Source: Peptococcaceae bacterium UBA5318 (GTDB lineage: Bacteria > Bacillota > Peptococcia > DRI-13 > UBA5318). From it: a stretch of DNA of 64,000 nucleotides. The notes under the pieces were generated by a model, which did not search any database, was not told the DNA's origin, and saw only the letters and a program-made list of their open reading frames with translations. The stretch is from NCBI GenBank assembly GCA_002408285.1, contig DHRG01000013.1, positions 4,536-68,535 on the forward strand, in the 5' to 3' direction. The translations under genes and the position numbers were made by a program. Of this stretch, positions 6,253 to 36,515 are shown one piece after another (within the stretch, counting starts at the first letter, position 1; every line of letters begins with the position of its first letter).

Positions 6253-7179
6253 CTATGTTGAACCGATAGAAGGCTCCAGATACCTGCCTGCTTCCGCCAG
6301 GGGATAATCATGGTACCGTGCCTGGGAGGCCAGAGCTTCCCCGTCCCCACGGTACTTTTTGCGGAACTCCGAAGGTGTGCAGTGATAGCTTAGCTTGAAG
6401 TGTTTGATCAGGTATTTCGGGTCGGAAAACCCGCTTTCCGCTGAAATTTTGGCGATCCGTTTATCCGTACACAAGAGCAGTTTGGCCGCCTGTTCACCCC
6501 TGATGTGCTGCAGCAACCCCTGGAAGGTAAGGCCGAATTTGTCCTTAATGTCATGGGACAGATGATAAAGGCTGATGCCGGCTTCTCCCGCCAGATTTTT
6601 CAACCCCGGTTTTCCGGGAGGAAACTTCAAGATATCCTGATACATTTTTCTGTTTCTTTGTACCTGTTTTTCGTCAAAGGCTTTGCGCCCGGGTCCAAAG
6701 CGCAGGTAATCAAAGCTATAGGCCATATAGGAAAGCATTTTTCCCAGACACTCCCGGACGTTTTCTTCTTGATTTTTATGGGGCTTCTCATTGAACACAC
6801 CCAGCAAAGCAGCAAGATACCCCTTCAGCCTACGGTACTTTTCCGGCGCTTGTGTTTCGTAATACGGGGAACAGCAATAGATAACTGAATATTGATGATC
6901 CCGATGCAGCCCTCTATAGAAGGCGGCATCAATTTGCAGCAACAAAAGCTTATTATCCCGGCTGCCTCTATCAATCCGGTGTATCTCCTCCGGATTGATC
7001 ACCAGGATATCCTTCTCATTCAGCAGGTGGGTTGCGGCGCCTACCCCGACAGTTGCTTGTCCCTGCAAGACATAGACGATTTCCAAGGCACTGTGCCAGT
7101 GGTAGGGATAGCTGGTCACCTCCCGGACCATTGCCCTGAGCTGTCTGTCTGGCGGAAAGGTTATTACTTCCGGACGCAT
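6253..7179 (-). CDS. AraC family transcriptional regulator (N-terminal cupin, C-terminal HTH); paralog 1
   Basis: YPYHWHSALEIVYVLQG...INPEEIHRI is the cupin part and ...LAGEAGISLYHLSHDIKDKFGLTFQGLL...IAKISAESGFSDPKYLIKHFKLSYHCTPSEFRK is the AraC HTH. Confidence 0.85.
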   Translation of the reverse strand: MRPEVITFPPDRQLRAMVREVTSYPYHWHSALEIVYVLQGQATVGVGAATHLLNEKDILVINPEEIHRIDRGSRDNKLLLLQIDAAFYRGLHRDHQYSVIYCCSPYYETQAPEKYRRLKGYLAALLGVFNEKPHKNQEENVRECLGKMLSYMAYSFDYLRFGPGRKAFDEKQVQRNRKMYQDILKFPPGKPGLKNLAGEAGISLYHLSHDIKDKFGLTFQGLLQHIRGEQAAKLLLCTDKRIAKISAESGFSDPKYLIKHFKLSYHCTPSEFRKKYRGDGEALASQARYHDYPLAEAGRYLEPSIGST

Positions 7180-7236
7180 GCCTCTCTCAACTCCTCCTTT
7201 TATCCCTTTTCATTGTATTGCCCCGGTGGAAAAGAT

Positions 7237-7253
7237 TCATTGACAATTTTGCG
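7237..7253 (+). promoter_or_regulatory. 17-nt motif TCATTGACAATTTTGCG, copy A
   Basis: An identical 17-mer also occurs at 28214-28230 and 36578-36594. All three copies lie in 5' intergenic regions of island operons. Confidence 0.5.
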
Positions 7254-7254
7254 C

Positions 7255-7341
7255 ATAAACAGAGTTCTAACCTTCAGTGGGAGTTTTAACTCCCCACTGA
7301 AGGTTAGAACTCGTTATCCAGGAACTTAGCGCCGCTTAGCT
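7255..7341 (+). repeat. Structured intergenic repeat, copy 1 (short form, 87 nt)
   Basis: ATAAACAGAGTTCTAACCTTCAGTGGGAGTTTTAACTCCCCACTGAAGGTTAGAACTCGTTATCCAGGAACTTAGCGCCGCTTAGCTATCGGATA aligns with copies at 12042-12251 and, inverted, at 28050-28182. Confidence 0.85.
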
Positions 7342-7452
7342 ATCGGATAAAAAAACCTTTAAGAATTCTTAAAGGTTTTTGCCGTCCTATCTTTCTATGT
7401 GCCCTTTATTCTCCGGGTGAAAAAAGGAGCCTGCGCGTAGAGTGGACTGTCT

Positions 7453-8358
7453 TTATCCGCTGTATTTGTCCGCCTCGGAAAGAGGATAATCCTGATACCT
7501 TGCCTGCGCAGCCAGGGCCTTGCCGTCGGCCTGATGCGCTTTGCGGAACTTGGAAGGGGTGCATCCAAAGTTTAGTTTAAAATGCTTGATCAGATATTTC
7601 GGGTCGGAAAACCCGCATTCCATGGCGATGTCCATAATGCGTCTATCGCTGCTTAAAAGCAGCTTGGCCGCACGTTCTATCCTGCTGTAATACAACAATT
7701 CCTGAAAAGTGAAGCCGAACTTGTTTTTAATATCGTGACTCAGGTGGTGCAGGCTGACCTCAATCTCCGCGGCCAGTTCTTTAAGCCCAAGAGTCCGGTC
7801 GCAATTTTTGTTCGAATACAGAGCGATTTGTTTAAGCCTTTCTACCTGCCTTTCCTCAAAGGCTACCGTTCCATATCCCCAACGCAAAAGATCAAAGTTG
7901 TAGGTAAGATAATGGAGCATGGCCGTCACAAGGTTTTCAATATTTTTATGATGCCCCGCCTGAGGTTTGGCCTTTAAGGCCTCGATCAGCCGGGCCACAT
8001 ATCCCTTTAATTTTTTATACCTGTCGGGGGCCTTGGTCTCATGGTAGCTCGAGCAGCAGTAGAGAAACAAATACCTGTCGCCCAGGAGTTTCCGGTAGAA
8101 GCCGGAGTCGATTTGCATAATCAGGATTTGATTATCCTGCCGGCTTTTGACGATGCGGTGCAGCTCATTCATGTTAATGACGGCCAGATCGTTTTCATGC
8201 AAGAGAAGTTCGTCGTTACCCAAACTGATATGGACCGACCCTTTAAAGACCTGGACAATTTCCAGGGCTTCATGCCAGTGGTAGGGATATTCCTCCACAG
8301 ACCTGACGAAGGCCCTGACCGGCAGTTTATCCACGAATTCAATTATCTCCGGGCGCAT
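7453..8358 (-). CDS. AraC family transcriptional regulator (cupin plus HTH); paralog 2
   Basis: It is collinear with the 6253..7179 product, for example MRPEIIEF...YPYHWHEALEIVQVFKG against MRPEVITF...YPYHWHSALEIVYVLQG. Both share the tail ...GFSDPKYLIKHFKL..CTPS.FRK...DG.ALA.QARY.DYPL.EA. Confidence 0.85.
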   Translation of the reverse strand: MRPEIIEFVDKLPVRAFVRSVEEYPYHWHEALEIVQVFKGSVHISLGNDELLLHENDLAVINMNELHRIVKSRQDNQILIMQIDSGFYRKLLGDRYLFLYCCSSYHETKAPDRYKKLKGYVARLIEALKAKPQAGHHKNIENLVTAMLHYLTYNFDLLRWGYGTVAFEERQVERLKQIALYSNKNCDRTLGLKELAAEIEVSLHHLSHDIKNKFGFTFQELLYYSRIERAAKLLLSSDRRIMDIAMECGFSDPKYLIKHFKLNFGCTPSKFRKAHQADGKALAAQARYQDYPLSEADKYSG

Positions 8359-10467: not shown

Positions 10468-10492
10468 CTGCCGACCCCCTTTCAATTTCAAT

Positions 10493-12041: not shown

Positions 12042-12251
12042 ATAAACAGAGTTCTTAGCTTCAGTGGGAGTTTTAACTCCCCACTGAAGGTTAGCCGCTC
12101 TCGGACATCCGTGTCCTCCGCGGCATTAGGCCGTCCGTGGCCGTTAGAAATCGTTATCCAGGAGCTTAGCGCCGCTTATCTCCCGCTTTTGGGTTATAGC
12201 TTCCAGCTCCAGAAAGAAGTGGGAGTATTAGCGACGGTTAGCTATCGGATA
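12042..12251 (+). repeat. Structured intergenic repeat, copy 2 (long form, 210 nt)
   Basis: It shares both termini and the hairpin core with copies 1 and 3 and carries about 50 nt of extra internal GC-rich sequence. Its right end (TTAGCTATCGGATAG) supplies the last codons and the stop of the MBL gene. Confidence 0.85.
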
Positions 12252-13092: not shown

Positions 13093-13187
13093 CCCTGCTC
13101 CCTCCTCGCTATAAAGTGAATCCCTATGCGGAGAGCGGTTTAAGCTCCTCCGCCTATTATTGGTTTGAGCTAATCCCGGAGCGCCGG

Positions 13188-15032: not shown

Positions 15033-15062
15033 TGACTATTTTGTTGTGTTCAAGCCATCTCT

Positions 15063-16709
15063 TTACTCCTGGTTTGGCAACCTGTATTTTTTCGGCCCAT
15101 AATGGAAGGCTTCGGTCGGGATGGCCACGCCGCAGGCTCTCAACTGCTGGGCCCGGGAAACAACGGCAGCCCCTTCCAACAGGTTGAAGGCGATTTGAGC
15201 GACGGTGCGGTTCCCTGGGTCCTCCAGGAAAGAGCCCTTGGTCCAGGCATTAAAAGCCCCCATGGCCGGCCCGCAAAAAATCTGATAATCAAGCTCCCGC
15301 CCTTTTTCTCCGGTAATGGCCCATTGGCTGGCCTTTCCCAAATACCAGCGAAACACCAGGGCCATTTTATGCCTGGGGTCCCTGGCGGCCCGCTGGAGCT
15401 GGCCGGGGTCCCTTTCTTGAAAAAAGCGGGCCGTCTCCTCCCATATTTTCTCCCAAGAGTCCCTGAACACGGTGGCCTCCACCTTCCGGCGAATATCCGC
15501 GGGTATTTGCTCCAGGGAGGAATAGCGCCGATAGAGGTCATACAACTGCGCGGCCCGGGGAGCAAACAGGGCGCCCAGCTTGAGCACCTGCACCTTGGCG
15601 CCTTGCTCGAACATATCCGCCGACGGGGCCATGGCCACGTCACTGATGTCCGCTTGGGCCAGCAGGGCTTTCCCCGCCTGGGAAAGACCGGATTCCACAG
15701 CGGCCTGATGGATCGTCCCTACCACGATATAAGCGGCGCCGTGCGCAAAGGCCGCCGCCGCCGCCGCAGGCGTGCCGATCCCGCCGGCCGCACCCACACG
15801 GATAGGACGGCGGTATGAAAAACGCCGCATGCACGCCTCCCTGGCCTGCAATACCGTGGGGAAAAGCGCCCCCAGGGGCCGATTGTCCGTATGGCCGCCG
15901 GAATCCGCTTCCACGGTAATATCTTCCGCCAGCGCGATTTGGGCAGCGCATTGGGCCTCCGCAGGGGATAGTTTGCCCTGCTCCACCAACTGCTCCAGCA
16001 GCCTGGCCGGCGGCGGGGACATAAACTGCCCGGCCAGCTCGGGCCTGGAGATTTTGGCGAAAAGGTAATGCTTCCTGTGGATGGCGCCCTGGGCATCGCG
16101 CCATAAGCCCTTGGCCGCATACCTGACCAGAGCGGGGGTGATCCCCAGGAAGGCTGAGGCCGAAAGGCGCAAGACGTTGTAATGCAGAAACAGATCAACC
16201 AGCAATTCTTCCCTTTGCGGCTCCTGGGGGGAATGGATCAGGTTGATGCCCCAGGATTTGTCCCCCGCGCCCTGTTGGATGACCTGAATAGCTCGCTCCA
16301 CCCGCGGCAGGGGCAAGCCGGCCGCGCCGAAAAAGCCCAGCAGATGGCGCCTGGCCATTTCCAGGACCATTTCTTCCGAGGCAATGCCATGGGCCATTTC
16401 ACCGCCGATATAGGGGAATTGGACCCCGTGCACCTCCTGAAAGCTGCGGTCCCCCAGCCACTCGGGATATTGGGGCGCCAATACGGCCAGCACCGGATAG
16501 CTCTGGGGAGCGGCGGACTCAGGCCGGGCAGGGGCGAAATGCCCGCCGACGGCCATGCCGACCGCTCCGCTCCCTTCGTCTCTGATCACATAGGTTTGTT
16601 GTCTGATATCCTTGAGCAGCCCGCCTGTTTCCCAGGGGAAAAAAGCCGGCTTCCTGTCGCCTTCAAGCCAAAAACCAATGGTGGGACGGCTTGTATCTGC
16701 CTGACGCAT
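15063..16709 (-). CDS. pfaD: PfaD-family trans-acting enoyl reductase (nitronate monooxygenase fold) of a PUFA-synthase-like PKS
   Basis: The product is 548 aa. It has a PfaD-like N-terminus (IGFWLEGDRKPAFFPWETGG...YVIRDEGSGAVGMAVGG) and a TIM-barrel FMN region (...GMAHGIASEEMV..., ...ITVEADSGGHTDNRP..., ...RVGAAGGIGTPAAAAAAFAHGAAYIVVGT...). Confidence 0.85.
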   Translation of the reverse strand: MRQADTSRPTIGFWLEGDRKPAFFPWETGGLLKDIRQQTYVIRDEGSGAVGMAVGGHFAPARPESAAPQSYPVLAVLAPQYPEWLGDRSFQEVHGVQFPYIGGEMAHGIASEEMVLEMARRHLLGFFGAAGLPLPRVERAIQVIQQGAGDKSWGINLIHSPQEPQREELLVDLFLHYNVLRLSASAFLGITPALVRYAAKGLWRDAQGAIHRKHYLFAKISRPELAGQFMSPPPARLLEQLVEQGKLSPAEAQCAAQIALAEDITVEADSGGHTDNRPLGALFPTVLQAREACMRRFSYRRPIRVGAAGGIGTPAAAAAAFAHGAAYIVVGTIHQAAVESGLSQAGKALLAQADISDVAMAPSADMFEQGAKVQVLKLGALFAPRAAQLYDLYRRYSSLEQIPADIRRKVEATVFRDSWEKIWEETARFFQERDPGQLQRAARDPRHKMALVFRWYLGKASQWAITGEKGRELDYQIFCGPAMGAFNAWTKGSFLEDPGNRTVAQIAFNLLEGAAVVSRAQQLRACGVAIPTEAFHYGPKKYRLPNQE

Positions 16710-17052
16710 CGCTTATCGTTCCTTTCTGAAAATCCCGGTAATCCCGGTGCCAGTCCAGGAAGCAAAAGGGCTTCATTTCACCCTTGACCACCAAGGCGGC
16801 CAGGAAATCCTTCCCGACCAGCCAAGACGCCCTCTCCCCCCGGTGCTCCGGTTCATTTTCCCAATAAATAACCCTCCCTTTCAGCAAGAGGATGCGGTAG
16901 GCCGCAGCCCTTTCCTGTTCCCGCTCATCCAAAATCTCTTCCCAGGGTTCGCCGGGTTCACTAACCTGGTCCAAATTCGCCGACCACAGATGGATGGCCC
17001 GCTCCAGCCCCTTGGCGTCAATCCTTCCCTTGCTCTGTACTTCTTTACTCAC
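16663..17052 (-). CDS. Hypothetical 129-aa protein with faint resemblance to the N-terminal half of an Sfp-type phosphopantetheinyl transferase
   Basis: IHLWSANLDQVSEPGEPWEEILDEREQERAAAYR recalls the vhvW...L...E..Ra..f opening of Sfp/PfaE PPTases. It is only about half the length of one. It overlaps the pfaD start by 47 nt. Confidence 0.3.
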   Translation of the reverse strand: MSKEVQSKGRIDAKGLERAIHLWSANLDQVSEPGEPWEEILDEREQERAAAYRILLLKGRVIYWENEPEHRGERASWLVGKDFLAALVVKGEMKPFCFLDWHRDYRDFQKGTISDASGRYKPSHHWFLA

Positions 17053-17119: not shown

Positions 17120-19564
17120 TTATCCATGAAGCCACGCGGAAAACTCCTCCAGCCAGTTCTCCTTCGCGGCGTCTTCGTTGCCGGGCCGCCCGGCTCCAGC
17201 GTGATTTAACACCCGCAAGGTTTCCGAGGATTTATCATCCAGTTCCCTTAAGACCTGGAGAATGACGGCCCGAGCTTCATCTAAGGCCGCCTCCTGCCTG
17301 AGTTTTTCCACTTTGCCTTGGAACAGGCCATCGCCGGGAGAAGGGGTTTCGGCTGCCAAGGGCGGCCCGGTGGTATTTAAGGCCGTGAGAATTTTTTCCT
17401 TCCGTTGGGCATAGGGTAAAGCCGCCAACTCGGCGGGCCAAAGGGGTGGGCCGAGATGGACGGATTGCCTGCCGTAGCGATAGGGAAACTCCAATTTCTG
17501 CGCCAAAGGTTCCAGGGGCAATCCCCCGGCGAAACGCACCGGCACAAGGGGAAGCTGGAGTTCTAAGGCCAGGTCGATAAACACGGAACTGACTTTTTCC
17601 ACGGGTTTTCGGCATTGCAGGGCCCGTGTCCCTTCCGCATGGACGAGGAGGGAGAGGCCTTGCTCCCGTATTTTCTGCCTGATGTCTTGCAGCAGGTGAA
17701 GGAGGGAGGCTTGGTCCTGACGGTCGAAATAGAAGACATGGAGCAAACTGCCGTTGATCCCGGGGTATTGACCCATTTTCTCCAGCAGTTGGCCGATCCA
17801 GGTGCTTTTTTGATGCTCCTTTTTGGCAATGATGCCCACGGGCTGCCTGGCCAGCGCCGAGGTAAGATAGATAAAGAGGTGGGCTTCCACCGTCGTTTGG
17901 TGATTGGCCAGATAGAGCACAGGCCTGGCCTGCTCCAGCAGGGCCTGATAAACCGCCGCGTCTTCTACCTGGTACTCGCTGATGAATTGCCGGGCCAGCC
18001 CGGCGAAAATATCCTCCGCAACCCATTCCTGGAGGCCCAGCCGCTCTCTCCAGTATTGCCTGGCCTTAGCAATGTCCAGCTTCTCCGCGGCTCCCTTCAC
18101 CAAGATCCCTGCGCCCTTTTCCTGGCTGAACAGACGGTAGCGCCGCAGGGGGAATTCCGGATGGTACGCCTGGCAAAGGGATCCGCCTTCCTCCTCCAGG
18201 ATGATCTCGGCGGGATGTTTTTGCAACTGCGCGGCCACATACTCTTTGACGGCGATCCATGTGGTCTTCTTCTTCTCCGTCTGAGCCCCGGGGAGGGCAT
18301 AGACCTGTTCCAGGGCGCCGGGGAACCAATCCTGTTCTTTCACCCTGTCCAGGGGGAGAAAAAAGCCGTCCTCCCCTTGGTCGCCCAAGCTTGCCCCCGG
18401 AAGATAGTCTTCCTTCAGCAGAAAGCGTTTGCGGTCTCTCCTGGATAGTGCGCCCCATCTCCCTTGGGGAAAACAAATCCCCACCAGTTTCAGGGCCAGA
18501 ATGCTTTGCTCTCCCGCCGACATCGCAATGTCAAATTGCGGGAAACGCCTGTTTTCCTCGCGAAAACCGGCAAATCTCACCTCGCAGCGGACCTCGCCCG
18601 TCCTGGGAACAGGCGCATAAAATTCCACCCAGGGAACTTGCCGGGGATAACAAAAAAATTGTTCCATCGCAGGATCGGTCCACAGGGACAATTCATCATA
18701 GGGGATGGTCTGCAGCAGGCCGTCCAGCAGCCTGGGGTTTAAAATTCCGCCGGGCGCCGGACCGGGCATGGCGCTTGTTGCGGCGCTCGGCGCGGCGCTT
18801 AGTTGGGCGCGGGAGCCGTTGGCGCCGTAAAACAGCCGTTTGATAACCCGCAGCCGCGGTCCATGGAAGCAGAGATCCTGTCCGTAGGGATCTTCGATGG
18901 GCTGCGGCTCCTCGAGTTCCGGAAGGGCCGAAGGACGGGGCTTCTGGTAGTCATCACGGATTTCCACGTCGGCCGTCATCAGTGGTTCAAAGCGGGAGAG
19001 AGCAGCCGTTCCGGCTTCCCGCCAATACAAAAGGGTTGCTTTGATCCGGTGGGGGGCCAAAGCCGCAAGCTCCGTTTTGATCAGCTGCCGCTGCCCGCAC
19101 ACCAACCAGCGGTGCACCTGTACATCCCGCATGACGGTAATGACCTGCCGGGGATAGCTTTTTTGCACCTGTTGGGCTATTTTATCCAGCATGAACATAA
19201 AGGGGTAAGCCGGCAGGGTGTAGGTCGGGCAATGATCCCAGAGCCACTCCTCCCTTTTCGGGTCAATCCACACCGCCTCCCCCTCGCCGGCTGCGGCGGC
19301 AAAGGGAAGCCTTGTCAAGTCGGCAGCCTCCAGCAGGGAAGACATGGTGCGCACATAGGCTTGCCAGGCCGCGCTCATCTGCCGGACATGGTGCCGGTGA
19401 ACCGCGCTGAGTCCTTCATATAAATCAAGGATCTGCCGCGACCGCCCGTCTGCGGGATCTTCCCCGCTCCGGGCCGGGGCTGCCGGCCTTTTCGCCTCAT
19501 ACATGGCCATCACACCCGGAAGCTGGGGCGCAGGCTCCAAGGTCTGGACCTCACAGGAATTCAT
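17120..19564 (-). CDS. PKS-type dehydratase (double hot-dog) fused to a C-terminal PlsC/LPLAT (AGPAT-like) acyltransferase
   Basis: The N-terminal part carries WLWDHCPTYTLPAYPFMFMLD and a later LLDGLLQ (DxxxQ-like) motif. The C-terminus carries acyltransferase blocks: LANHQTTVEAHLF (an NHxxxxD-like block with E), HAEGTR (FPEGTR-like) and LPLVPVRF. I prefer the start at 19564 (GGGAGG 8 nt upstream, 14-nt overlap with psd) over 19603. Confidence 0.75.
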   Translation of the reverse strand: MNSCEVQTLEPAPQLPGVMAMYEAKRPAAPARSGEDPADGRSRQILDLYEGLSAVHRHHVRQMSAAWQAYVRTMSSLLEAADLTRLPFAAAAGEGEAVWIDPKREEWLWDHCPTYTLPAYPFMFMLDKIAQQVQKSYPRQVITVMRDVQVHRWLVCGQRQLIKTELAALAPHRIKATLLYWREAGTAALSRFEPLMTADVEIRDDYQKPRPSALPELEEPQPIEDPYGQDLCFHGPRLRVIKRLFYGANGSRAQLSAAPSAATSAMPGPAPGGILNPRLLDGLLQTIPYDELSLWTDPAMEQFFCYPRQVPWVEFYAPVPRTGEVRCEVRFAGFREENRRFPQFDIAMSAGEQSILALKLVGICFPQGRWGALSRRDRKRFLLKEDYLPGASLGDQGEDGFFLPLDRVKEQDWFPGALEQVYALPGAQTEKKKTTWIAVKEYVAAQLQKHPAEIILEEEGGSLCQAYHPEFPLRRYRLFSQEKGAGILVKGAAEKLDIAKARQYWRERLGLQEWVAEDIFAGLARQFISEYQVEDAAVYQALLEQARPVLYLANHQTTVEAHLFIYLTSALARQPVGIIAKKEHQKSTWIGQLLEKMGQYPGINGSLLHVFYFDRQDQASLLHLLQDIRQKIREQGLSLLVHAEGTRALQCRKPVEKVSSVFIDLALELQLPLVPVRFAGGLPLEPLAQKLEFPYRYGRQSVHLGPPLWPAELAALPYAQRKEKILTALNTTGPPLAAETPSPGDGLFQGKVEKLRQEAALDEARAVILQVLRELDDKSSETLRVLNHAGAGRPGNEDAAKENWLEEFSAWLHG

Positions 19565-20483
19565 CAAGATTCGCCTCCCTATCCTTTCGGGCTTGGCGGC
19601 CAACAGCCTCTCCCGCCAATACCTTCACCTCATAACCCTTTTCGGTCTGCAGCAGGATATCTTCATCAACCGCAGCCGTCCCTTTCTCCAAAAACAGCAG
19701 GATGGTCGAGCCGCCCAGCTTGAAGTAGCCTTTTTCCTCTCCCCTGGCAACGATGGCGTCCGGCCGATAGATTTGCACGATGGAACCCACAAAAGCGGCG
19801 CCGATCTCCACGTAGGCGATGTCCCGGAAGTTCGCGGACCGCAGGATGCTGACTGCCCTCTTGTTCCGGCAAAAAAGCGCCGGGATGGCCTGCAAGGCCA
19901 GGGGATTCACGGAATAGTAACAGCCTTTGAGGCCTTTGCTGGCGGTGCACCTTCCGCTGTCGATGAAATGGAAGCGATGGTAGTCGGCCAGCCCAAGGCG
20001 CAAGGCCAGGCATACCCCGCCTTGATACTTGCGGGCCAGCCCCCTGTCCCCCAGAAGCTCTTCCAGGGTGTAAGAAAAACCTTTGACCTGGATCACGCGC
20101 TCAATGTCGATATTGGCCCAGGCCCGCATCTTCCCGTCCCCGGGCGATACGAGGAGACGGGGATCCGCCGCAAACTTGCGGGCTTCCGGTTTGAGCTTCC
20201 GGGCAAAGAAGGCGTTAAAATTGGGGAAATCTTGGGGCTCCTGGAGGCACTCCGACAGATCGAGGCCGTGCTCTTCCGCAAAGCCTTTGATTTTACGGGC
20301 GCTGAAGGGAAAATCATGCAGCTTGCCAAGGATAAAGGGGTAAATCTTCCGTTTCAACAGCAGTTCAAGCCCCAGCCGGCCCAGGGCCGTATGGTAGATG
20401 CGCCTGATCGCCTCTTCGCCCGCCACCTTCTCGGTTTCATAGCCCTTCGTTTTTCTGTTGTAAATTTGATAGCTTTTGCTCAT
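19551..20483 (-). CDS. psd: Phosphatidylserine decarboxylase proenzyme
   Basis: Family-typical segments are present: ...FFARKLKPEARKF..., ...LADYHRFHF... and the self-cleavage region GYFKLGGSTILLF. Confidence 0.85.
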   Translation of the reverse strand: MSKSYQIYNRKTKGYETEKVAGEEAIRRIYHTALGRLGLELLLKRKIYPFILGKLHDFPFSARKIKGFAEEHGLDLSECLQEPQDFPNFNAFFARKLKPEARKFAADPRLLVSPGDGKMRAWANIDIERVIQVKGFSYTLEELLGDRGLARKYQGGVCLALRLGLADYHRFHFIDSGRCTASKGLKGCYYSVNPLALQAIPALFCRNKRAVSILRSANFRDIAYVEIGAAFVGSIVQIYRPDAIVARGEEKGYFKLGGSTILLFLEKGTAAVDEDILLQTEKGYEVKVLAGEAVGRQARKDREANLDEFL

Positions 20484-20539: not shown

Positions 20540-21151
20540 TTATATTCTGAGCAAGCCCGTGATGATGGCCGCCGGAATGAGTACATACAACGACTTGGTA
20601 AACCAGCCGTTCTTATCATAGCGGAAGGAGGAATTCATCAGGAGGGCCAAGAGGATAAACAAAGGATAGCAAAAAGAGAGGGGTCCTCCCCGGAAAAAAG
20701 CCAGGTACAGGATGAGGGCCAGGAAGACCAGGGCGCCGGCGTGGGTCGTACAGAGCCCTGTAAAGCAGTTTTTGCCCCGAACCTTGACCAAGCCTTCCAG
20801 GTTATAATTGGCCAGCCGCCACAGGCCCGACAGGGCGTAGAGATAAAGGGCCCCTCCGGCCGGCAGGCCCTTAAAACCCAGGGAATAGGCCATGAGGGCC
20901 GGAAGGACGGCAAAATTAACAACATCGGCCAGGCTGTCCAGTTCCCTGCCAAACTCCGTTTCCAACTGAAGTCTGCGGGCCGCCATTCCGTCCAGCCGAT
21001 CGGACAGCAAAGCCAGGGCATAAAGGACCAAGGCCGGCTGATAACTTTCTTGTGAAAATAGCAGGTAGGCGCTAAGCCCCGCGCCTAGGGAAAAGGCCGT
21101 GATGAGATTGGGAAGATTGAGATGTTTCAGGGTGGGAAAAATTTTAAGCAT
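20540..21151 (-). CDS. pssA: CDP-alcohol phosphatidyltransferase, most likely CDP-diacylglycerol--serine O-phosphatidyltransferase
   Basis: The motif DRLDGMAARRLQLETEFGRELDSLAD fits D-G-x2-A-R-x8-G-x3-D-x3-D. The protein is polytopic. The PssA assignment is supported by the adjacent psd. Confidence 0.75.
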   Translation of the reverse strand: MLKIFPTLKHLNLPNLITAFSLGAGLSAYLLFSQESYQPALVLYALALLSDRLDGMAARRLQLETEFGRELDSLADVVNFAVLPALMAYSLGFKGLPAGGALYLYALSGLWRLANYNLEGLVKVRGKNCFTGLCTTHAGALVFLALILYLAFFRGGPLSFCYPLFILLALLMNSSFRYDKNGWFTKSLYVLIPAAIITGLLRI

Positions 21152-22877
21152 GTTGCACCTCCGCGAAGTGCCTTTTCATATAGAAGTATTCCTCGGAGAA
21201 CCCATGCACGCCCTGGCGCCTGAGGATTTTTTTCCCGATCAGGGGATGGCCGTACAGCGAATTTACCAGGGCCAAGGCCTCTTCGTAGCCGATCCCCTCC
21301 TTGATCCCATAGGTGGAGGGTTCGTCCGCCACAACGCGCCCTTCCTTGGCAACGATGCCGTACTGCTCCAGATGCCTGTCGATATGGCTGCCCTTGGCCA
21401 AAACCCAGGGGTTGGCGCTGATCACGGCTATTTTGTCATGGTTCCTTTCCAGAAAAGCAATGGTCTCCTGGGCCTCCTCCCTGGTTTCCGAGGGGAACCC
21501 AAACATCACATGCAATTCCACGGCAATGCCGTTTTCAGCGCACTTATCCAGCGTAAGCTGGGCGGTTTCCCGGCTGTAGCCCTTGCGCATCGCCGAGACA
21601 ATCCGCCGGCACCCTGATTCAAAACCGAGGGAAAGAAAGCGGCAGCCGGCTTGGGCCGCCAGTCCGATACTATCCGGCAGCCCTTTTTCAAAACGCATCA
21701 TCGTGCCGAAACGGATGTTGATTCCCTCCTGCAAAATCCGCTCCGCTAAAAACCGCAGGGTTGCAGGGGCCATGGCTTCATCGGCAAAGACGATAAAATC
21801 TATGCCGTAGTCCTCGCGATACAACCGAATATTCCGGATGATCCTTTCCGGGGGCAGCGGGCGCCACTTGCTCCCAATCGTTTCGGCCAGCGCGCAAAAG
21901 GCGCATTTGTTCCAATAGCAGCCGCGGGAAGACATCAGCGGCGCAAAGACCAGGGGCGTCAGATATTTTTTGCCTACCGGCAGACCCTTTAAGTCCAGCA
22001 GGGGCAATTTAGCAGGCTCCATGGTTTTCGCCTGGCGATTGATTTTCAGGACCTCCCCCTTCCGGTCGTAGTAGAGGAGCCGGGGGAGCCCCCCAGGCTG
22101 TTCCTTCTTCTCCAGGCAGCGGCACAAGGCCAGCAGCGGTTCTTCGCCTTCCCCGTAAATACCGAAGGGCTGTAACAGCCGGCGCAGGCCCTCTTCCTGT
22201 TTGTTCCCGGCGCAGCCCGTACCGCTCCCGTCTTGGACGGCATCGCACAGGAGGGAAAAAAACGAGCCCCCGCATACCATCGGAACTTTCAAGGCGCTTC
22301 TTATTTCCGCGGTCAGCGCCAAGCCGGGGTACAACTGGCTCTCGTAATTATAGGAGAGGCCGATCAAGTCCGGCTGAAATGCGGCGATCTGCGGGATCAG
22401 CTTTTTTTGATAGTAGGCCAGGAAGGGGTTTTCCCCTGCGTTCTCCAGCATGCCTTCCCTTGAATAAAGACAGTTCAGCGTATAGATGGTGGGCAAATTC
22501 GCCAAGGACGTAAACAGCAGGACATTGTTGACGGCTGCGGTCGCTCTCTCGAAGTTATCCTTGGTGACGGCGAAGCCTTCTTCGCGCCACACCTCTTGGA
22601 CAACGGCAAAATCCTCCTCGATCCCGCCGCTGACTTTACTTATCTCTTCTTTTTGCGGATAAGAGCATGCCGGACCCACGGAGGCTAAGAAGCCCTTGGC
22701 CTCTTGAATTTTATCCCGCAGCCTTTCCGGAAACAGCTGAAAATGCAGGAACTCTATGGAAGCGTCAATCGTGGCCACCTCGAGGCCCTCCTGGCGCAAA
22801 TAGGAGGATAAGGCCATGATACTGAGTGGGGGTGTAAAAGGCGCCAAACCGGGAGGGCTTAATAAAACAACTTTCAT
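21144..22877 (-). CDS. B12-binding-domain-type radical SAM enzyme
   Basis: The N-terminus is Rossmann-like ([34 protein letters not shown]...DLIGLS). The cluster motif is SSRGCYWNKCAFCAL, and FLSLGFESG and later barrel strands follow. The three Cys are spaced Cx4Cx2C. Confidence 0.8.
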   Translation of the reverse strand: MKVVLLSPPGLAPFTPPLSIMALSSYLRQEGLEVATIDASIEFLHFQLFPERLRDKIQEAKGFLASVGPACSYPQKEEISKVSGGIEEDFAVVQEVWREEGFAVTKDNFERATAAVNNVLLFTSLANLPTIYTLNCLYSREGMLENAGENPFLAYYQKKLIPQIAAFQPDLIGLSYNYESQLYPGLALTAEIRSALKVPMVCGGSFFSLLCDAVQDGSGTGCAGNKQEEGLRRLLQPFGIYGEGEEPLLALCRCLEKKEQPGGLPRLLYYDRKGEVLKINRQAKTMEPAKLPLLDLKGLPVGKKYLTPLVFAPLMSSRGCYWNKCAFCALAETIGSKWRPLPPERIIRNIRLYREDYGIDFIVFADEAMAPATLRFLAERILQEGINIRFGTMMRFEKGLPDSIGLAAQAGCRFLSLGFESGCRRIVSAMRKGYSRETAQLTLDKCAENGIAVELHVMFGFPSETREEAQETIAFLERNHDKIAVISANPWVLAKGSHIDRHLEQYGIVAKEGRVVADEPSTYGIKEGIGYEEALALVNSLYGHPLIGKKILRRQGVHGFSEEYFYMKRHFAEVQHA

Positions 22878-25800
22878 CAGGTGTTGCTCCTTTCCTCAAA
22901 GGCAACCGCCAGCATCAGCTTGATCCTGTTTAACTGGTTTACCTCGCTCGCGCCCGCATCATAATCCACCGGAATGATATTGGCCTGGGGATACCTTCTT
23001 TTCAACTCCTTCATCATTCCTTTCCCCGTTATTTGGTTGGCCAGGCAGGCAAAAGGCTGGACGCACACGATATTCCCGACGCCGCTCTCCAACTGCTCCA
23101 GCATCTCGCCCGTCAAGTACCAGCCTTCGCCGGCCTGATGGCCCAAAGACAGGAGCTCGCCGGCCCTTGCGGCCATGTCCCTCAGCGTGGGAGGCGCTGT
23201 AAACTTGCGGCTGCCTCGCAGCGCCTTTTTCATGTCTTGGCGGTAGTACTCCAGCACTTCTATGACAATTTTATCCGCCCACAGCTTCCTTTTGCTCCAG
23301 GAAAGCTTCTTGTATTTGAAGTCGGAGTCAGAGGCATTATAGAGGAGATAATTCATGAGGCCGGGGAGTATGACTTCCACCCCGCTGTCCTCCAGGATTT
23401 CCACGATATTGTTATTCCCCAGGGGATGGTACTTGACAAAGATCTCGCCCACCACCGCCACCTTGGGTTTGCTGATCTCCCGGGTTTCCAGGGCGTCGAA
23501 GTCCTCCACAATCCCGTAGAGGTTCTTGGAAAACTCGGCCTGACTGCCGCTGCCCACGGACTCCCTGCACCTTTCCACCCATTGTTCATACAGGCGCTTG
23601 GCAGCCCCCGGAATTTTTTCATAAGGCCTCACCTGGTGCAATACCTGCAGCAACAGGTCGCCGTAAACAATGCTCATGATAAACCTCTTGAGCAGGCCCG
23701 GAGTCATGTGGACGGCCTGAGGGCCGCCGCCCAGGGCCGTAGGAACGAAGGGGATTACCGGTATGGCCGCCAAGCCGGCGGCCGCCAGTCCTTTCTTCAT
23801 AAAGCCGAGGTAATTGGTGGCCCGGCACATCCCCCCCGTCTTATAGACGGCCACGGCGATATTATCCAGGTCATACCGGCCGGAGCGCAAAGCCTTGATG
23901 CACTGGCCGATGAGAACCACGGCGGGGTAGCAGGCCTCCTGAGTGACATATTTCAGGCCCTCCTCCAGCACATCCCTGGCTTCGGCCGGCCCTGCGGCCA
24001 AGACCTCCAGATCGTAGCCGCAAGCCTGGAAGGCCGCCTCAAAAAACTGGTCGTGGAAAGGGGACAACTGGTAGAGCAAAATTTTAGGCTTTGCGGCCTT
24101 TGCTCTTGGGGGCAATTGCGCGTTCCCGGACTGGGCCGCCTGCAACAAGGGGGGCGCGGTCTTTCTCTCCTCAAGGGCCGCTTGCAAAGAGCGGAGCCGG
24201 ACCCTGAAGATGCCCTTTTGACTCATTTCATCGATTTTAATGGCGGTATGGATCTTCCGGCCCTTTTTCAAGAGCTCCCTGACCTGTTCCAGGGCGATGG
24301 CATCAAGACCGCAGCCGAAGGAATTGAGCTGAACCAACTCCAGGTTGTCACGAGCGCTCACCAGGGCGGCGGCCGCGTAAAGCCTGGACTGGTACATCCA
24401 CTGGTCGACGAAGAGAAGAGGCCTTTCGATCCGGCCCAAGTGGGCAAGGGACTGGACGGAGAGCACGGCCATCCCTAGATCCAGGATCATCTCGTCAATC
24501 CTGTGATTGACCTCAGGGTCCAGGTGATAGGGTTTGCCCGCCAGCACGATCCCCGTTGTTCCCGTTCGTTCCAGGTACTCCAGGGTTTCCTCGCCTTTTT
24601 TCCGCAGATCCTCCTTGACCTGCCCAACCTCTTCCCGGCCCCGCGCCACCGCGGCGGCTATTTCTTTTTTGGTGACGCCGAACTCTTGCAATTCCTCAAA
24701 GAGCCTTTGCGCCAGCCTTCCTTCGTCATGGTACGGTAAAAAGGGGCTTAAGAAGCGAACCTGCCCGTCCCGCAGGATGTCCATATTATTCCGGATGACC
24801 TCGGGATAGGAGGTCACAATGGGGCAGTTGTAGTGGTCGTCGGCTCCCGCCATCTCCTTTTGCTCATAGGGAAGGCAAGGATAAAAAATCGTTTTGATCC
24901 CCCGGCGAACCAGGGAGGCGATATGCCCGTGGACCAATTTCGCAGGATAACACAGCGTTTCCGAAGGGATGGTGTCCATGCCCTCTTCATAAATGGCCCG
25001 GGAGGAAAGGGGGGACAGTTCTACCCTGAACCCCAGGCTGGTAAAGAACACGAACCAGAAGGGATAGTTCTCGTACATATTGAGTACCCGGGGCAGGCCG
25101 ACGGCGCCCCGGGGGGCTTGCTCCAGGGGTAAGGGGATGTAGGAAAACTTCCTTTGCAATTCATAAGCGAAGAGATTGGGGATCTCCTTGTTTTTGCGGT
25201 TATCACCGGCCCCCCGCCGGCATTGATGGCCCGAGACAATCCTGGCGCAGTGGTTAAAGGTATGGATGGCGACGGCGCAGTGATTCGGGCATTTCTCACA
25301 CCTTTGCAAGGTTTGCAGGACCCGCAGTTCCCGCAACTGCCCCTCTTGGAGCAAGGTGCTCTCCTGCCCTTCCCGGTACCCCTCCCGGGCGGCCAGGGCC
25401 GCCCCCAACGCCCCCATCAGGCCCGCCAGCGCGGGTCTGACCACCTTTCTTCCCGCCAGGAGTTCAAAACAACGCAAGACGGCGTCGTTTAGAAAGGTCC
25501 CGCCCTGGACGACGATGTTCTCACCCAGATCCGCGGGGTTTCTGACGTTGATCACCTTTATCAGCGCGTTTTTGATCACCGCGTAGGATAAGCCTGCGGC
25601 GATGTCCGCCAGGGAAGCGCCCTCCTTCTGGGCTTGTTTGACTCTGGAATTCATAAAAACGGTGCACCTGGTGCCCAGATCAACGGGCTGCTGCGCCGCC
25701 AAGGCGGCGGTGGCGAATTGCCCGATATCCATGTTCAAGGATTTAGCAAATGTTTCCAGGAAGGACCCACAACCGGCCGAACAGGCCTCGTTCACGAGAA

Positions 25801-27136
25801 TGCCGGCGATGGCGCCCTCCCGTATTTTCAGGCACTTCATATCCTGCCCGCCGATATCCAGGATGAAATCAACCCCGGGCAGAAATTTGCGGGCGGCCTT
25901 GTAGTGGGCGATGGTTTCTACCACGCCGAGATCGAGGCCCAGGGCGGTTTTCAACAGCCCTTCCCCATAGCCTGTTACCGCCGAATTGGCGATGACCGCC
26001 TGTGCCGGCAGACGCCGGTAGATCTGGCCCAGGATTTCCCGGGCTTTCTCCAAAGGCCTTCCTTCATGATTGGCGTAGTAGGAATAGCGTATCTCCTCTT
26101 CTTCATCGATCAGCACGGCTTTGATGGTGGTAGAGCCCGCGTCGATTCCCAGAAAGCAGCGGCCTTGCCAAGGGCCCTGCTCCTTGGTCTTCCCTGTTGC
26201 AGCCTGATGCCTCCTGTAAAAATCGGCTTTCTCCTGCTGATCCCTGAACAAGGGTGTCAGCCGCTTAACCTCCTCGGCCTCCATCTCGCCTGTGGACAAC
26301 ACTTTTTCCCGGAAAGCCGCAAAAGGCCTGCTTGCTTCCCCGCCGGCCGCCAGGGCCGCCCCGGCGGCCGCCAAAACAAGGGAATTCTCGGGCAGAATAG
26401 CAGCCTGCTCCGCCAGGCGCAAGGTTTCCTTGAATCTTTGCCGCAGGGCGGGCAAATAGGTAAGGGGGCCGCCCAAAAACAGCACCTTGCCTTGGATGGG
26501 CTTGCCGCAGGAAAGGCCGCTGACAATCTGGTTGACCACCGCCTGCAAAACGGAGGCGGCGATATCCTCCCTGCCGACGCCCTCGTTGATCAGCGGCAGG
26601 ATGTCCGTCTTGGCGAACACACCGCAACGGGAGGCGATGGGGTAGATGGTCGTATACCCGGCGGCAAGCTTGTCAAGGCCTGCCGGGTCCGTGTTCAGCA
26701 GCGCGGCCATCTGGTCGATGAAAGCCCCGGTCCCCCCGGCACAGATCCCGTTCATTCTCTGGTCGATGCCCGTTTTTTCAAAATAAAGGATTTTAGCGTC
26801 TTCGCCCCCCAGTTCAATAGCTACGTCCGCTTTTTCCCCGAGGGTCCTCAGGGCCTTGGCGGTGGCCGCCACTTCCTGGACATAGGCGGCTTCCAGCCAG
26901 CGGGCCAGGAGCACGCCCCCGGAACCCGTGAGGGCGAGGGTGATGTCCGCCCCCCCCAGGGCCGGCGTGGCTTGCTCCACCAACTCCGCCAGGGTCTCTT
27001 TTATCCTGGAAAAATGCCGCCTGTAGCTGCCGTACAAAAGCGTCTTGCCCTCCAACGCCACCAGTTTTATGGTAGTGGAGCCTATATCCAGCCCCACCTG
27101 CAACAATCTTTTTTCTTTGCCCATGCCCTTTACCAT
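22877..27136 (-). CDS. 1419-aa fused BCR/HAD-family protein: two BcrAD/BadFG-type activase ATPase domains plus 2-hydroxyacyl-CoA-dehydratase-like domains (PlsA/PlsR- or Ger-like candidate)
   Basis: There are two acetate/sugar-kinase-fold ATPase modules ([15 protein letters not shown]... and [15 protein letters not shown]...). A Cys-rich segment follows ([27 protein letters not shown]). The C-terminal half is HgdB/D-component-like and ends ...[38 protein letters not shown]. Confidence 0.8.
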
Positions 27137-35900: not shown

Positions 35901-36515
35901 AATGCGCCCAGCCACCACACTTCCCAACAGCCCGGGGAAAGAGCTTTCCCGCCAGGGCAGGTGGTTGCCGGCAATCCGGTCGCAAACCTCCTCTATCTTC
36001 TGCTCCGGCAGCCCGCTTTCTCTCAGCCCTTGCGCCCAAAGGGACCTTTGCACACTGCTGCCCAAATGGATGGCAAGCTCCGTACCGGAAGTCACGCCCA
36101 GGATAACGCTGGTTTTTTCTTTGTTCAGGTTTTTAAATTGGAAGCGGCAAGCCTCCTCCAGAACTCTTTGGGCCACGACTAAGGCTAAAAGCTGGCAAGT
36201 ATCCGTCGCCTTTAAATTATGGGGCGGAATGGCAAACTCCAGGGGATCAAAAACTATGTCCGGGAGAAAGGCGCCCCTTTTGCAATAGGTTTTATCGGGA
36301 GCCGCGGGATCAGGATGATAGTAATCGTCTATCAGCCAGTGAGAGCAGGGAACATCCGTGATGAGGTCCTTTCCTTCAAGAATGTTTTTCCAGCAAGCTC
36401 CCCGGTTGTCTCCTCCGGGCAATAAAGCGCTGATCCCCACAACGGCGATGGGTTGACAAGGTTCCACCAGGATTTTCACCTTCCTCCGGTCGGTTATGCC
36501 TGATTGGTCCAGCAC
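32916..36515 (-). CDS. PfaA-like type I PKS/FAS: ketosynthase - acyltransferase - single acyl carrier protein
   Basis: The KS shows TIVDAACGSSL, EAHGTGT and IGHTKAAAG, plus the Pfa-type segment SHWLIDDYYHPDPAAPDKTYCKRGAFLP. The AT shows FPGQGSQY, LAGHSYGE and TAFHS. The ACP shows [16 protein letters not shown]. Confidence 0.9.
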   Translation of the reverse strand: MLDQSGITDRRKVKILVEPCQPIAVVGISALLPGGDNRGACWKNILEGKDLITDVPCSHWLIDDYYHPDPAAPDKTYCKRGAFLPDIVFDPLEFAIPPHNLKATDTCQLLALVVAQRVLEEACRFQFKNLNKEKTSVILGVTSGTELAIHLGSSVQRSLWAQGLRESGLPEQKIEEVCDRIAGNHLPWRESSFPGLLGSVVAGRIANHFDLQGTNTIVDAACGSSLCAVSMAILELQSGKADLVITGGADTQNDIFMYLCFSNILALSPTGDCRPFSRQADGTVLGEGIAMVALKRLADAEKDGDPIYAVITGLGSSSDGRAKSIYAPRAEGQVLAVRRAYEAAGYGPDTVELVEAHGTGTRAGDAAEFAGLARVFPGEGKKQWCALGSIKSQIGHTKAAAGAVGLFKAVMALHHQVLPATIKVDQPNPNLKIEDSPFYLNTQSRPWIRGLDHPRRAAVSAFGFGGSNFHVTLEEYRKPGNRPAKLRTMPYELFLLAGRSPEELLRQGQGLLEEISACPSGSWTPSVRNGWHVALAKQAQAQYDPERAYRLALVSSNLDDLAAKIKQSLERIGTKPEQALDLSAGIYYATKRMTGKIAFLFPGQGSQYLNMGRDLALHFDCAREVWDRAAELAAGPQGEKLHDFVFPRPAFDGETRKLQEDCLTDTRIAQPAIGAMSLSLLAVLKQLGLQADLLAGHSYGEITALAAAGVFSEDAMLHVAKKRGELMQETSGNKGAMTSVFLPPAEAEALLKRLNLSVVVANINSPEQVVVSGPEEEIRQLEAACKQQGLPFIRLPVSTAFHSALVEPSVKPFRQYLQGVAFQKSAVPVYANLAAKPYPEEPESMKDLLARQIANPVRFAELIGRMAGEGVGLFIEVGPGGVLTGLAKQCLTGQDVKAVATDGKGQHGILSLLQAVACLSVLGVKLDYSCLWSGYGSLQDPRDEKKPAYPVKINGANYGKPYPQKNKSIDRQVSTMNQKERQQREQTGREHTREQEVSSVSLDLIQKQMTEAHLAFQKALTESHQAYLGFSEKLLAALTGQRPAAIPEKDGPAGEEQGLWQQAEHSLLELAHADQAGLIAGKSAAPPLPAEIPGYSGQEPVAGRGSGDGGKPSLSVRETVLEVVSEKTGYPVELLDLDSDLEAGLGIDSIKRVEILATVQERLAESLDAEPPDPDNSLPLALHTLKEIIAFLEQRVKKN

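Follow-up and report, generated by a model that had tools for sequence, protein, structure and literature searches.

Introduction

Anaerobic ether-lipid synthesis by the enzymes PlsA and Ger was discovered only in 2021–2022. In the literature the family goes by the name of single-gene plsA, the plasmalogen synthase, with Ger, the maker of alkyl ethers, as a homologue (PMC12838417, PMC13159169). Single-gene plsA of 4248–4920 bp yields plasmalogen in Escherichia coli (PMC12838417), and ether-lipid formation in this host was obtained with the single-gene plsA of Enterococcus faecalis, Lactococcus cremoris and Bifidobacterium longum as well as with plsA plus plsR of Clostridium perfringens (PMC12838417, PMC13159169). 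In the same host, Ger of Thermotoga maritima and Desulfatibacillum alkenivorans forms ethers of the 1-O-alkyl glycerol type, and does so solely in anaerobiosis (PMC13159169), and according to a 2026 paper PlsA and Ger are currently indistinguishable by primary structure (PMC13274423). Ordinary plsA of facultative anaerobes is described as adjoining a TetR regulator. Here, we describe a locus within a stretch of 64,000 nucleotides from Peptococcaceae bacterium UBA5318 (GenBank assembly GCA_002408285.1, contig DHRG01000013.1, positions 4,536 to 68,535 of the forward strand; hereafter the window, to which coordinates refer unless another locus is named), in which a gene of the PlsA/Ger type stands between genes for a CDP-diacylglycerol synthase (cdsA) and a radical SAM protein (rSAM) in a putative lipid operon.

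Such a cluster bears on which lipid intermediate undergoes ester reduction, on what sets a vinyl as opposed to an alkyl ether, and on the enzymes that furnish bacterial ether lipids with methyl groups or rings, the basis of the palaeoclimate proxies drawn from brGDGTs (branched glycerol dialkyl glycerol tetraethers).

Results

A fused protein very probably of the PlsA/Ger family

The central open reading frame (ORF) encodes a PlsA/Ger-type protein of 1419 aa with the following parts:

22877..27136, minus strand: predicted fused PlsA/PlsR-type (PlsA/Ger family) glycerolipid ester reductase, assigned by ORF, Pfam/NCBIfam, homology and clade
26237..27100, minus strand: activase module 1, aa ~13–300, with DIGSTTIK at aa 17, GGEDAK at aa 110 and the cluster cysteines Cys132 and Cys171
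25388..26152, minus strand: activase module 2, aa 329–583, with DAGSTTIK at aa 332, GGQDMK at aa 429, Cys452/456 and Cys491
25220..25300, minus strand: Cys4 motif C613-x2-C616-x3-C620...C639, a small beta-hairpin unit in the structure model, invariant in 32 homologues
24149..25174, minus strand: catalytic module 1, aa ~655–996, including DUF2229 at aa 679–896, with invariant Cys729, Cys771 and Cys942
22880..24085, minus strand: catalytic module 2, aa ~1018–1419, with invariant Cys1069, Cys1104, Cys1358 and Cys1364

A search of 5.8 billion proteins returned at least 8000 full-length homologues. Beyond a few close relatives, the best matches are Clostridial proteins of ~1430 aa that are 55–58% identical to the window protein and collinear with it over 99% of its length, and the proteins of Clostridium kluyveri and Clostridium tyrobutyricum have an identical Pfam architecture. 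We hence regard it as very probable that the ORF belongs to the PlsA/Ger family, and a PlsA/Ger-type synthase in a dedicated lipid operon is, with good confidence, the best overall explanation of the locus. The first-pass annotation, a reading of the bare sequence that preceded this work, had treated the single-polypeptide form as distinctive; it is the common form of PlsA, represented by thousands of collinear Clostridial proteins of ~1430 aa.

ORF, translation and Pfam/NCBIfam agree on the two BcrAD/BadFG modules that had been read from the 1419-aa sequence. The two stretches (BcrAD_BadFG in Pfam, CoA_E_activ, TIGR00241, in NCBIfam) score 171 and 238 bits, and both carry the ATP-binding motifs DxGSTTxK and GG(E/Q)DxK together with cluster-bridging cysteines (Cys132/171 and Cys452/491). 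They are followed by the 'reduction' domain DUF2229 (PF09989; 300.8 bits, aa 679–896). The cysteine cluster CEKCPNHC...C, likewise noticed at first pass, was found at aa 613, with C630 and C639 after it, and 11 cysteines (613/616/620/639, 729/771/942 and 1069/1104/1358/1364) are invariant across the 32 homologues aligned.

In the PDB sequence search matches were confined to the activase half of the protein (HadI, HgdC, MbdQ/P and DCCP-R; E 1e-25 to 1e-30 against HgdC and HadI), and no dehydratase chain was returned at E ≤ 0.01. HGD-D (PF06050) gave no match in the whole protein, even at E ≤ 5. Of the hydroxyacyl-CoA dehydratases, which had been named beforehand as the opposing case, no dehydratase subunit was thus detectable by sequence. 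An AlphaFold2 (AF2) model of aa 601–1419, built on a 32-sequence alignment (pLDDT 80), comprises the Cys4 hairpin unit and two modules, with a low-confidence or disordered linker (aa 997–1012) between the modules. Its best Foldseek matches in the PDB are BzdNO, DCCP, HadBC and MbdON (probability 1.0, identity 11–13%), each spanning about half of the model. The HgdB/D-like C-terminal domains postulated earlier are therefore recognisable at the level of the fold, not at that of Pfam sequence families. Catalytic module 2 would be the counterpart of the separate PlsR of C. perfringens.

One related gene differs in length: plsA of the metagenomic locus L091 (2931–6453) has no equivalent of window positions 25145–25859, so that ~240 aa with the last part of activase 2 and with the Cys4 motif are missing, be it through a deletion in this variant or through an artefact of assembly.

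A rare subclade with a conserved gene order

The window protein belongs to a rare subclade made up of five 90%-identity clusters among the 5.8 billion proteins, plus three partial or metagenome loci. Its clade mates are P0002 (90% identical), P0003 and P0004 (both 70%) and P0005 of Desulfamplus magnetovallimortis (63%); a neighbour-joining tree sets these five proteins apart from ordinary PlsA. The clade carries 40 fixed substitutions at positions where ordinary PlsA is nearly invariant, and several of them (among them G1103M, P1366A and H1368Q) adjoin invariant cysteines. The gene orders of the subclade loci are as follows, rSAM denoting the radical SAM gene described below, PKS a polyketide synthase and cNMP a cyclic nucleotide:

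L001/L002: PKS (2011 aa) – ABC-cNMP exporter (opposite strand) – cdsA – plsA – rSAM – pssA – psd – DH/AGPAT – PfaD
L092 and L091 (metagenomes): the order of L001/L002 as far as the contigs extend; L092 begins within the PKS, in its KR-DH portion
L089 (Pelotomaculum sp. PtaB.Bin104): plsA – rSAM – pssA – psd
L088: CHASE2-cyclase – NHL – MBL – cdsA – plsA – pssA – psd – FabA-FabA-AGPAT, without rSAM
L003 (Desulfamplus): PKS – 2295-aa protein ending in DH/AGPAT – cdsA – plsA – pssA-like, without rSAM

A dedicated cdsA lies directly 5' of plsA in every locus that covers the junction (L001, L002, L003, L088, L091 and L092), plsA precedes pssA in every subclade locus, with psd usually next, and Pfa-type PKS/AGPAT genes occur wherever a locus extends far enough to reveal them. 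The order cdsA-plsA-pssA is thereby conserved across two phyla. As a baseline we took 80 ordinary plsA loci from GTDB genomes (49–55% identity, flanks of up to 10 kb on each side, all Clostridial), none of which has a homologue of cdsA, pssA, psd, the PKS or rSAM within 10 kb; the linkage to cdsA is therefore specific to the rare subclade, and the novelty lies in the genomic context, not in the type of enzyme.

This survey of homologue neighbourhoods had been proposed with the first-pass annotation, which argued for a glycerolipid substrate, as for PlsA/PlsR or Ger, and against a 2-hydroxyacyl-CoA. The finding of cdsA-plsA-pssA in L001/L002, L003, L088, L091 and L092 and of plsA-rSAM-pssA-psd in L089 bears this out: homology to the PlsA/Ger family and the conserved synteny cdsA-plsA-(rSAM)-pssA-psd support a glycerolipid substrate independently of each other.

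The junctions within the operon are close. Public gene calls place the start of the plsA product (P0001, 1415 aa) at Met5 (27124). With the start of the 1419-aa form, the cdsA stop TAA (27132–27130), contained in ATGGTAA, overlaps the plsA start by 7 nt, as first annotated, and with Met5 a 5-nt gap remains, so that the junction is tight under both choices. One base, the A of TGATG at 22875–22879, is common to the stop of plsA and the start of rSAM, also in agreement with the earlier reading; a strong Shine-Dalgarno sequence for rSAM, AGGAAAGGAG, lies within the 3' end of plsA, and the rSAM stop and the pssA start overlap by 8 nt. Since these tight junctions, those of plsA/rSAM/pssA among them, recur in relatives that are 76–90% identical (L001/L002 and L089), they are tight by more than chance. 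Of the translational coupling claimed at first pass, the overlapping geometry and its conservation stand, and coupling itself is what this geometry suggests.

Vinyl or alkyl ether

The product is somewhat more probably a vinyl than an alkyl ether, a distinction that cannot be told from the sequence. A Ger-type glycerol ester reductase, which would form saturated sn-1 (possibly also sn-2) alkyl ethers and lead to alkyl-ether phosphatidylethanolamine (PE), is a possible alternative that we consider the less probable one. It draws on the report that Ger and PlsA form one family inseparable by sequence (PMC13274423), on the architecture of two activase stretches plus DUF2229 that is reported for validated Ger, on the fixed substitutions of the clade near cysteine ligands, and on the fact that its member Desulfamplus shares the phylum Thermodesulfobacteriota with the alkyl-ether producer D. 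alkenivorans. However, the nearest relatives outside the clade are Clostridial, not from Desulfobacterota or Thermotoga. Clostridia are classic plasmalogen producers. The 'BB-D' architecture, moreover, is also found in the ordinary proteins of C. kluyveri and C. tyrobutyricum and hence does not discriminate, for which reason we rejected Pfam architecture as a criterion between Ger and PlsA.

The Desulfamplus protein was considered separately as a bridge from the clade to the Ger of D. alkenivorans. A search with it recovered its own clade first and Clostridial proteins next, further Desulfobacterota being absent from the matches listed, and the candidate was rejected on these next-best matches.

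The radical SAM protein

Directly downstream of plsA lies a gene that had been annotated at first pass as a B12-dependent rSAM:

21144..22877, minus strand: class-B-like radical SAM protein, 577 aa, assigned by Pfam, alignment, AF2 and Foldseek

The radical SAM assignment holds (PF04055, 60 bits), whereas the B12 part comes from a sub-threshold Pfam match and from fold likeness to TsrM and OxsB. The cluster motif is CX4CX2C (CYWNKCAFC; C320, C325 and C328) in place of the canonical CX3CX2C; its three cysteines are invariant in 31 homologues, and the motif is common to homologues down to ~21% identity, copies from clusters for ribosomally synthesised and post-translationally modified peptides (RiPPs) included, while more distant ones have CX3CX2C. 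In Foldseek searches the AF2 model (pLDDT 89) is closest to TsrM, OxsB, MgmA, AprD4, CysS and TokK; it aligns over both domains with TsrM and OxsB (TM 0.56–0.59) and likewise with AprD4, and a PDB profile search agrees with these matches. As the Pfam match to the B12-binding domain stays below threshold, B12 dependence is suggested mainly by the likeness to TsrM and OxsB.

No curated NCBIfam family takes in the protein, as its scores lie below the cut-offs of PhpK (87 against 600 bits), the 'lipid biosynthesis B12-rSAM' TIGR04072 (81.7 against 360), HpnR (27 against 650), HpnJ (67 against 578) and the RiPP C-methyltransferase (71.5 against 282). An rSAM of the Tes/GDGT-MAS type occurs neither among the 50 best Foldseek matches in the PDB, which we take to hold a GDGT-MAS structure, nor in the PDB profile search at E ≤ 1.

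A HMMER search over 1.84 billion representatives gave 843 matches at E ≤ 1e-30, about two dozen of them at 35% identity or more. Only copies that are 76–100% identical are linked to plsA; the gene is therefore an accessory one, inserted between plsA and pssA in a single sublineage that comprises the window, L001/2, L089, L091 and L092. The closer of the other relatives are found in mixed contexts, both lipid-like and RiPP clusters:

L004: fatty-acyl-AMP ligase/glycosyltransferase cluster
L093: lipid-A-type acyltransferase and ABC exporter
L097: LanM cluster
L006: YcaO RiPP cluster

The rSAM protein most likely tailors a hydrocarbon tail. The earlier proposal that it methylates, cyclises or couples the tails is a guess as to the role, and C-C coupling of the Tes/Mss type, for which no fold or profile match was found, is disfavoured. 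C-methylation is the leading guess, one that we hold tentatively. One could also imagine, though we think it doubtful, that the protein is no methylase and cyclises, desaturates or cross-links the tails (GrsA/B-like; functionally Gms/Mss-like) or acts on the vinyl ether by C2' methylation or by conversion of vinyl to alkyl. In favour of such an activity, OxsB, the second-best structure match, is presumably not a methylase and AprD4 is a diol dehydratase; the gene follows plsA directly with its TGATG coupling; the class-B-like rSAMs that act on ether lipids include ring synthases besides methylases (PMC13459092); and an enzyme converting vinyl to alkyl ethers is listed as missing (PMC13274423). 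On the other side, the best NCBIfam likenesses are methyltransferases (the PhpK family and the RiPP C-methyltransferase), likeness to Tes, Mss or GDGT-MAS was not found, and relatives occur in RiPP clusters. Enzymes of this type in RiPP clusters are usually C-methylases.

Operon partners and the polyketide synthase

The remaining genes of the cluster are the following:

27130..27972, minus strand: dedicated CDP-diacylglycerol synthase (cdsA paralogue), 280 aa (CTP_transf_1, 152 bits; S-x2-KR...PGHGGVLDR)
20540..21151, minus strand: CDP-alcohol phosphatidyltransferase (pssA-like), by Pfam/NCBIfam, with intact D-x2-DG-x2-AR...G-x3-D-x3-D
19551..20483, minus strand: phosphatidylserine decarboxylase (NF001941, 373.6 bits, above the cut-off of 371; GGST self-cleavage motif)
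17120..19603, minus strand: PKS dehydratase (DH)-like region plus AGPAT/PlsC-type acyltransferase (Pfam PS-DH and Acyltransferase; EGTR)
15063..16709, minus strand: PfaD-family enoyl reductase (TIGR02814, 617 bits, above the cut-off of 449)
30571..36515, minus strand: PfaA-like iterative PKS, with ketosynthase (KS), acyltransferase (AT) and acyl carrier protein (ACP) at 32916–36515 and ketoreductase (KR)-DH' at 30571–32904
28341..30515, plus strand: MsbA/HlyB-type ABC exporter with C-terminal cyclic-nucleotide-binding domain, divergent from cdsA (Pfam/NCBIfam), also in L001, L091 and L092
12238..15032, minus strand: CHASE2-adenylate/guanylate cyclase (13188–15032) and metallo-beta-lactamase (MBL)-fold hydrolase (12238–13092), by Pfam; both are also found in L088, upstream of cdsA
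6253..8358, minus strand: two AraC-family regulators (Pfam), with 81–93% DNA identity to L001 and L092, where they also flank PfaD

To judge by their sequences, CdsA, PssA, Psd, PfaD, the PKS and the AGPAT look functional. The PKS retains the KS cysteine (DAACGSS), the AT motif GHSYG and one ACP (LGIDS), and with 958 and 297 bits against TIGR02813 it falls just below the cut-off of 1010 bits, owing to the split of the gene and to its lone ACP. Its counterpart in L001, a 90%-identical relative, is one ORF of 2011 aa; in the window, a 1-nt deletion directly 5' of an A9 run (~32921–32929) divides it into 1199 aa (KS-AT-ACP) and 777 aa (KR-DH). Neither a PfaC-type KS with chain-length factor (CLF), a second KS nor a FabA domain was found by Pfam in the window. 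In L088, a 1660-aa FabA-FabA-AGPAT protein (11821–16803) stands where the rSAM clusters have a version of ~825 aa without the FabA didomain, so that the presence of FabA and that of rSAM appear inversely related. This hints that the rSAM modification, methyl branching for example, may replace unsaturation.

The PKS genes raise the question whether the substrate could be a thioester or ACP-bound PKS intermediate that the enzyme reduces or dehydrates, for instance with release of an aldehyde or of an enol-ether precursor. A Pfa-type PKS in every sufficiently long locus and the sequence distinctness of the clade from ordinary PlsA would fit, yet we consider this improbable: plsA never adjoins the PKS genes and always lies between cdsA and pssA, and the protein shares 55–58% full-length identity with enzymes whose genomes have a PKS-free plsA locus. 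Since the PKS architecture differs between loci around an unchanging cdsA-plsA-pssA core, this alternative, which had been offered with the first-pass annotation, is unsupported.

The CHASE2 cyclase, the MBL hydrolase, whose homologue in L088 has a weak Apyc1-like match, and the cNMP-binding exporter possibly form a self-contained cyclic-nucleotide module (12238–15032 and 28341–30515 in the window, 851–5031 in L088) that moves with the cluster. A hairpin terminator (30519–30547) was detected between the convergent ABC and PKS genes, and the promoter and terminator scans gave nothing else informative. The 368-nt leader between the ABC gene and cdsA contains two near-perfect hairpins (28076–28165, minus strand: CTTCAGTGGGAG...CTCCCCACTGAAG and CTCCCGCTT-AAAG-AAGCGGGAG), which match no Rfam family, and no riboswitch, such as a cobalamin riboswitch, was found in it. 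Between the DH-AGPAT gene and PfaD lies a small ORF (16663–17052, 129 aa) with no Pfam match, which is ~70% conserved in L092 (15789–16553), where its two matching segments are ~380 nt further apart.

Chromosomal surroundings

The cluster lies in an island (~8.5–36.5 kb) with a GC content of 0.58 against 0.45 in the flanks, the drop occurring at ~36.5 kb, and it is a horizontally transferred, mobile high-GC cluster. The island is ~15 kb away from dnaA/dnaN/recF/gyrBA.

In L001 (21775–21888) and L092 (~18234–18309) PfaD is directly followed by the two AraC regulators. The window has an extra high-GC insert of ~6.5 kb (8508–15055) between them, which holds, besides the genes of the CHASE2 cyclase and the MBL hydrolase, those of an NHL/Cu-amine-oxidase-N protein and of a FecR/Flg_new/Shr-like surface protein. 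Just beyond the right edge of the island there are a T-box leader upstream of a serA-like gene and serS, a skipping-rope sRNA and a tRNA (RNA elements at 42080–42276, 37342–37427 and 38898–38984, all on the minus strand). The origin region (43641–58586) has dnaA, dnaN, recF, gyrB and gyrA on the minus and mnmE and mnmG on the plus strand, and the GC skew changes sign near 50–53 kb.

Discussion

The locus is best explained by a PlsA/Ger-type synthase in a dedicated lipid operon. By analogy with its family, the protein would be an ATP-driven, Fe-S-dependent reductase of the BCR/HAD superfamily that turns the acyl ester at sn-1 of a glycerophospholipid into an ether, namely a vinyl ether (plasmalogen) or possibly, as with Ger, an alkyl ether. 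The two N-terminal activases would form a pseudo-dimer around a [4Fe-4S] cluster held by Cys132/171 and Cys452/491; ATP hydrolysis would drive an electron of low potential onto the Fe-S clusters in the two C-terminal modules of BCR/HAD fold, where the ester carbonyl would be reduced via a ketyl-type radical and then dehydrated.

For the pathway as a whole, the gene content suggests that the AGPAT domain moves the PKS chain onto lyso-phosphatidate, and that the resulting phosphatidate (PA) would be turned into CDP-diacylglycerol by CdsA, phosphatidylserine by PssA and PE by Psd. PlsA would form the sn-1 ether at some point along the route from PA to PE. The MsbA-like exporter with its cNMP-binding domain may move the product under control of the CHASE2 cyclase, with the MBL hydrolase possibly serving as phosphodiesterase. 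We lean towards such a dedicated PKS-to-ether-PE pathway, and the operon probably makes a specialised ether lipid that is not yet described.

One could go further and speculate, tentatively and against the more likely outcome, that the operon is a self-contained line for a secondary ether phospholipid, with PKS chain, dedicated PE head group, sn-1 ether, tail modification by an rSAM that is the first of its kind and cNMP-gated export, in which ester reduction takes place at CDP-diacylglycerol. If so, the rSAM protein would be the first radical SAM enzyme of the cobalamin type in bacteria to tailor fatty-acyl/ether glycerophospholipid tails and a model for the methylating enzymes of brGDGT-type bacterial ether lipids. 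The invariable order cdsA-plsA-pssA would then mirror a reduction of the ester while the lipid is CDP-diacylglycerol, which would place anaerobic ether formation within the pathway.

Several observations weigh against this picture of the enzyme and its pathway. The acyltransferase has NHQTTVE (HX4E), not HX4D, as AGPAT motif I. The frameshift in the PKS gene may mean that the cluster is impaired here, or the split is a sequencing error; beyond these, the gene could be a pseudogene, the site could be prone to slippage, or the ACP-KR linker could tolerate the split. For the rSAM protein the B12-binding match (PF02310, 25.2 bits) lies below the cut-off of 32.1, and AprD4, one of its fold matches, is presumably not B12-dependent. 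The link to tested enzymes runs via family membership, with Q8XL48/Q8XL47, Q835P9, AGL49404 and SHJ90043 outside the alignment, and for every carrier of the cluster the lipid product is a prediction from genes alone. Because of the 40 fixed substitutions, some of them beside invariant cysteines, the chemistry or substrate of the clade could differ from those of ordinary PlsA. Lastly, no sequence criterion separates PlsA from Ger (PMC13274423).

That the protein is instead a fused (R)-2-hydroxyacyl-CoA dehydratase with its activator, serving amino-acid fermentation beside coincidental lipid genes, can be dismissed as most improbable, since the database names '2-hydroxyacyl-CoA dehydratase' and 'activator of 2-hydroxyglutaryl-CoA dehydratase', the activase matches to HgdC and HadI and the C-terminal fold match to HadBC stand against the missing PF06050 and dehydratase subunits, a fold identity of merely 11–13% at which BzdNO and DCCP score no worse than HadBC, experimentally tested family members that are plasmalogen/ether-lipid synthases, an operon without a gene for a CoA-transferase or a 2-hydroxyacid dehydrogenase, and a cdsA/pssA/psd synteny that is kept across phyla. 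Names of the type '2-hydroxyacyl-CoA dehydratase' mislead for this very large family and are better read as PlsA/Ger.

The PlsA/Ger-type reading turns the cluster into a natural experiment, in which a PlsA subclade is fixed between CdsA and PssA, with and without rSAM and with and without FabA-type desaturating domains. At ~20 kb, the cluster is small enough for expression as a unit. The version with rSAM is carried in terephthalate reactors rich in Pelotomaculum, and the version without it by D. magnetovallimortis, presumably a cultured organism.

Comparison with known systems

With single-gene PlsA (EF1327/Q835P9 of E. faecalis and the enzymes of L. cremoris and B. longum) and with PlsA plus PlsR of C. 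perfringens, the window protein shares the length (~1415–1430 aa), the Pfam architecture and the invariant cysteines. The order of modules is that of single-gene PlsA as well (two activases, Cys4 unit, two reduction modules), the identity of 55–58% referring to Clostridial family members. It differs from ordinary PlsA by its place in a separate, rare clade with 40 fixed substitutions, by its position between cdsA and pssA-psd and by its linkage to a PKS.

Ger (Tmari_0479 of T. maritima and SHJ90043 of D. alkenivorans) has the superfamily and the 'BB-D...' core in common with the window protein and acts on the sn-1 ester of membrane lipids, anaerobically only, its product being an alkyl and not a vinyl ether. 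Validated Ger is absent from the 120 best matches of the window protein and of its Desulfamplus relative, and the PlsA/Ger literature examined makes no mention of an operon of Ger with cdsA or a PKS.

In its model, the rSAM protein resembles the class B lipid tailors Gmm, GrsA/B and HpnP/HpnR in an N-terminal Rossmann-like domain plus an rSAM barrel and, like them, is encoded in a lipid operon beside an ether-lipid-making enzyme. It differs from them by CX4CX2C in place of CX3CX2C and lies far below the cut-offs of HpnR, HpnJ and the 'ladderane' family TIGR04072; with its bacterial host and a predicted substrate class of fatty-acyl/ether glycerophospholipids it falls outside the 2026 review of lipid rSAMs.

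Terrestrial myxobacterial synthases for polyunsaturated fatty acids also off-load through an AGPAT domain. With the Pfa-type 'secondary lipid' clusters (Shulse & Allen 2011), as far as the accessible part of that source describes them, the present cluster shares a PfaA-like KS-AT-ACP-KR-DH, PfaD and a patchy distribution suggesting horizontal gene transfer. The window cluster has a single KS, a single ACP and no KS-CLF (PfaC) gene, and it also comprises an ester reductase, an rSAM and a full head-group pathway from PA to PE, which the accessible part of the catalogue does not describe for the 20 published types of secondary lipid. A PKS-cdsA-plsA cluster was likewise not found in full-text searches of the open-access literature covered, nor in the PlsA/Ger papers, the same part of the 20-type catalogue and the 2026 rSAM review.

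Overall, a Pfa-type PKS, AGPAT off-loading, a full PA-to-PE pathway and PlsA come together in the cluster, with an rSAM in some copies and, in the window, L001, L091 and L092, a cNMP-gated exporter. It extends the 'secondary lipid' (Pfa-like) clusters to one with a whole head-group pathway and a cNMP-controlled exporter.

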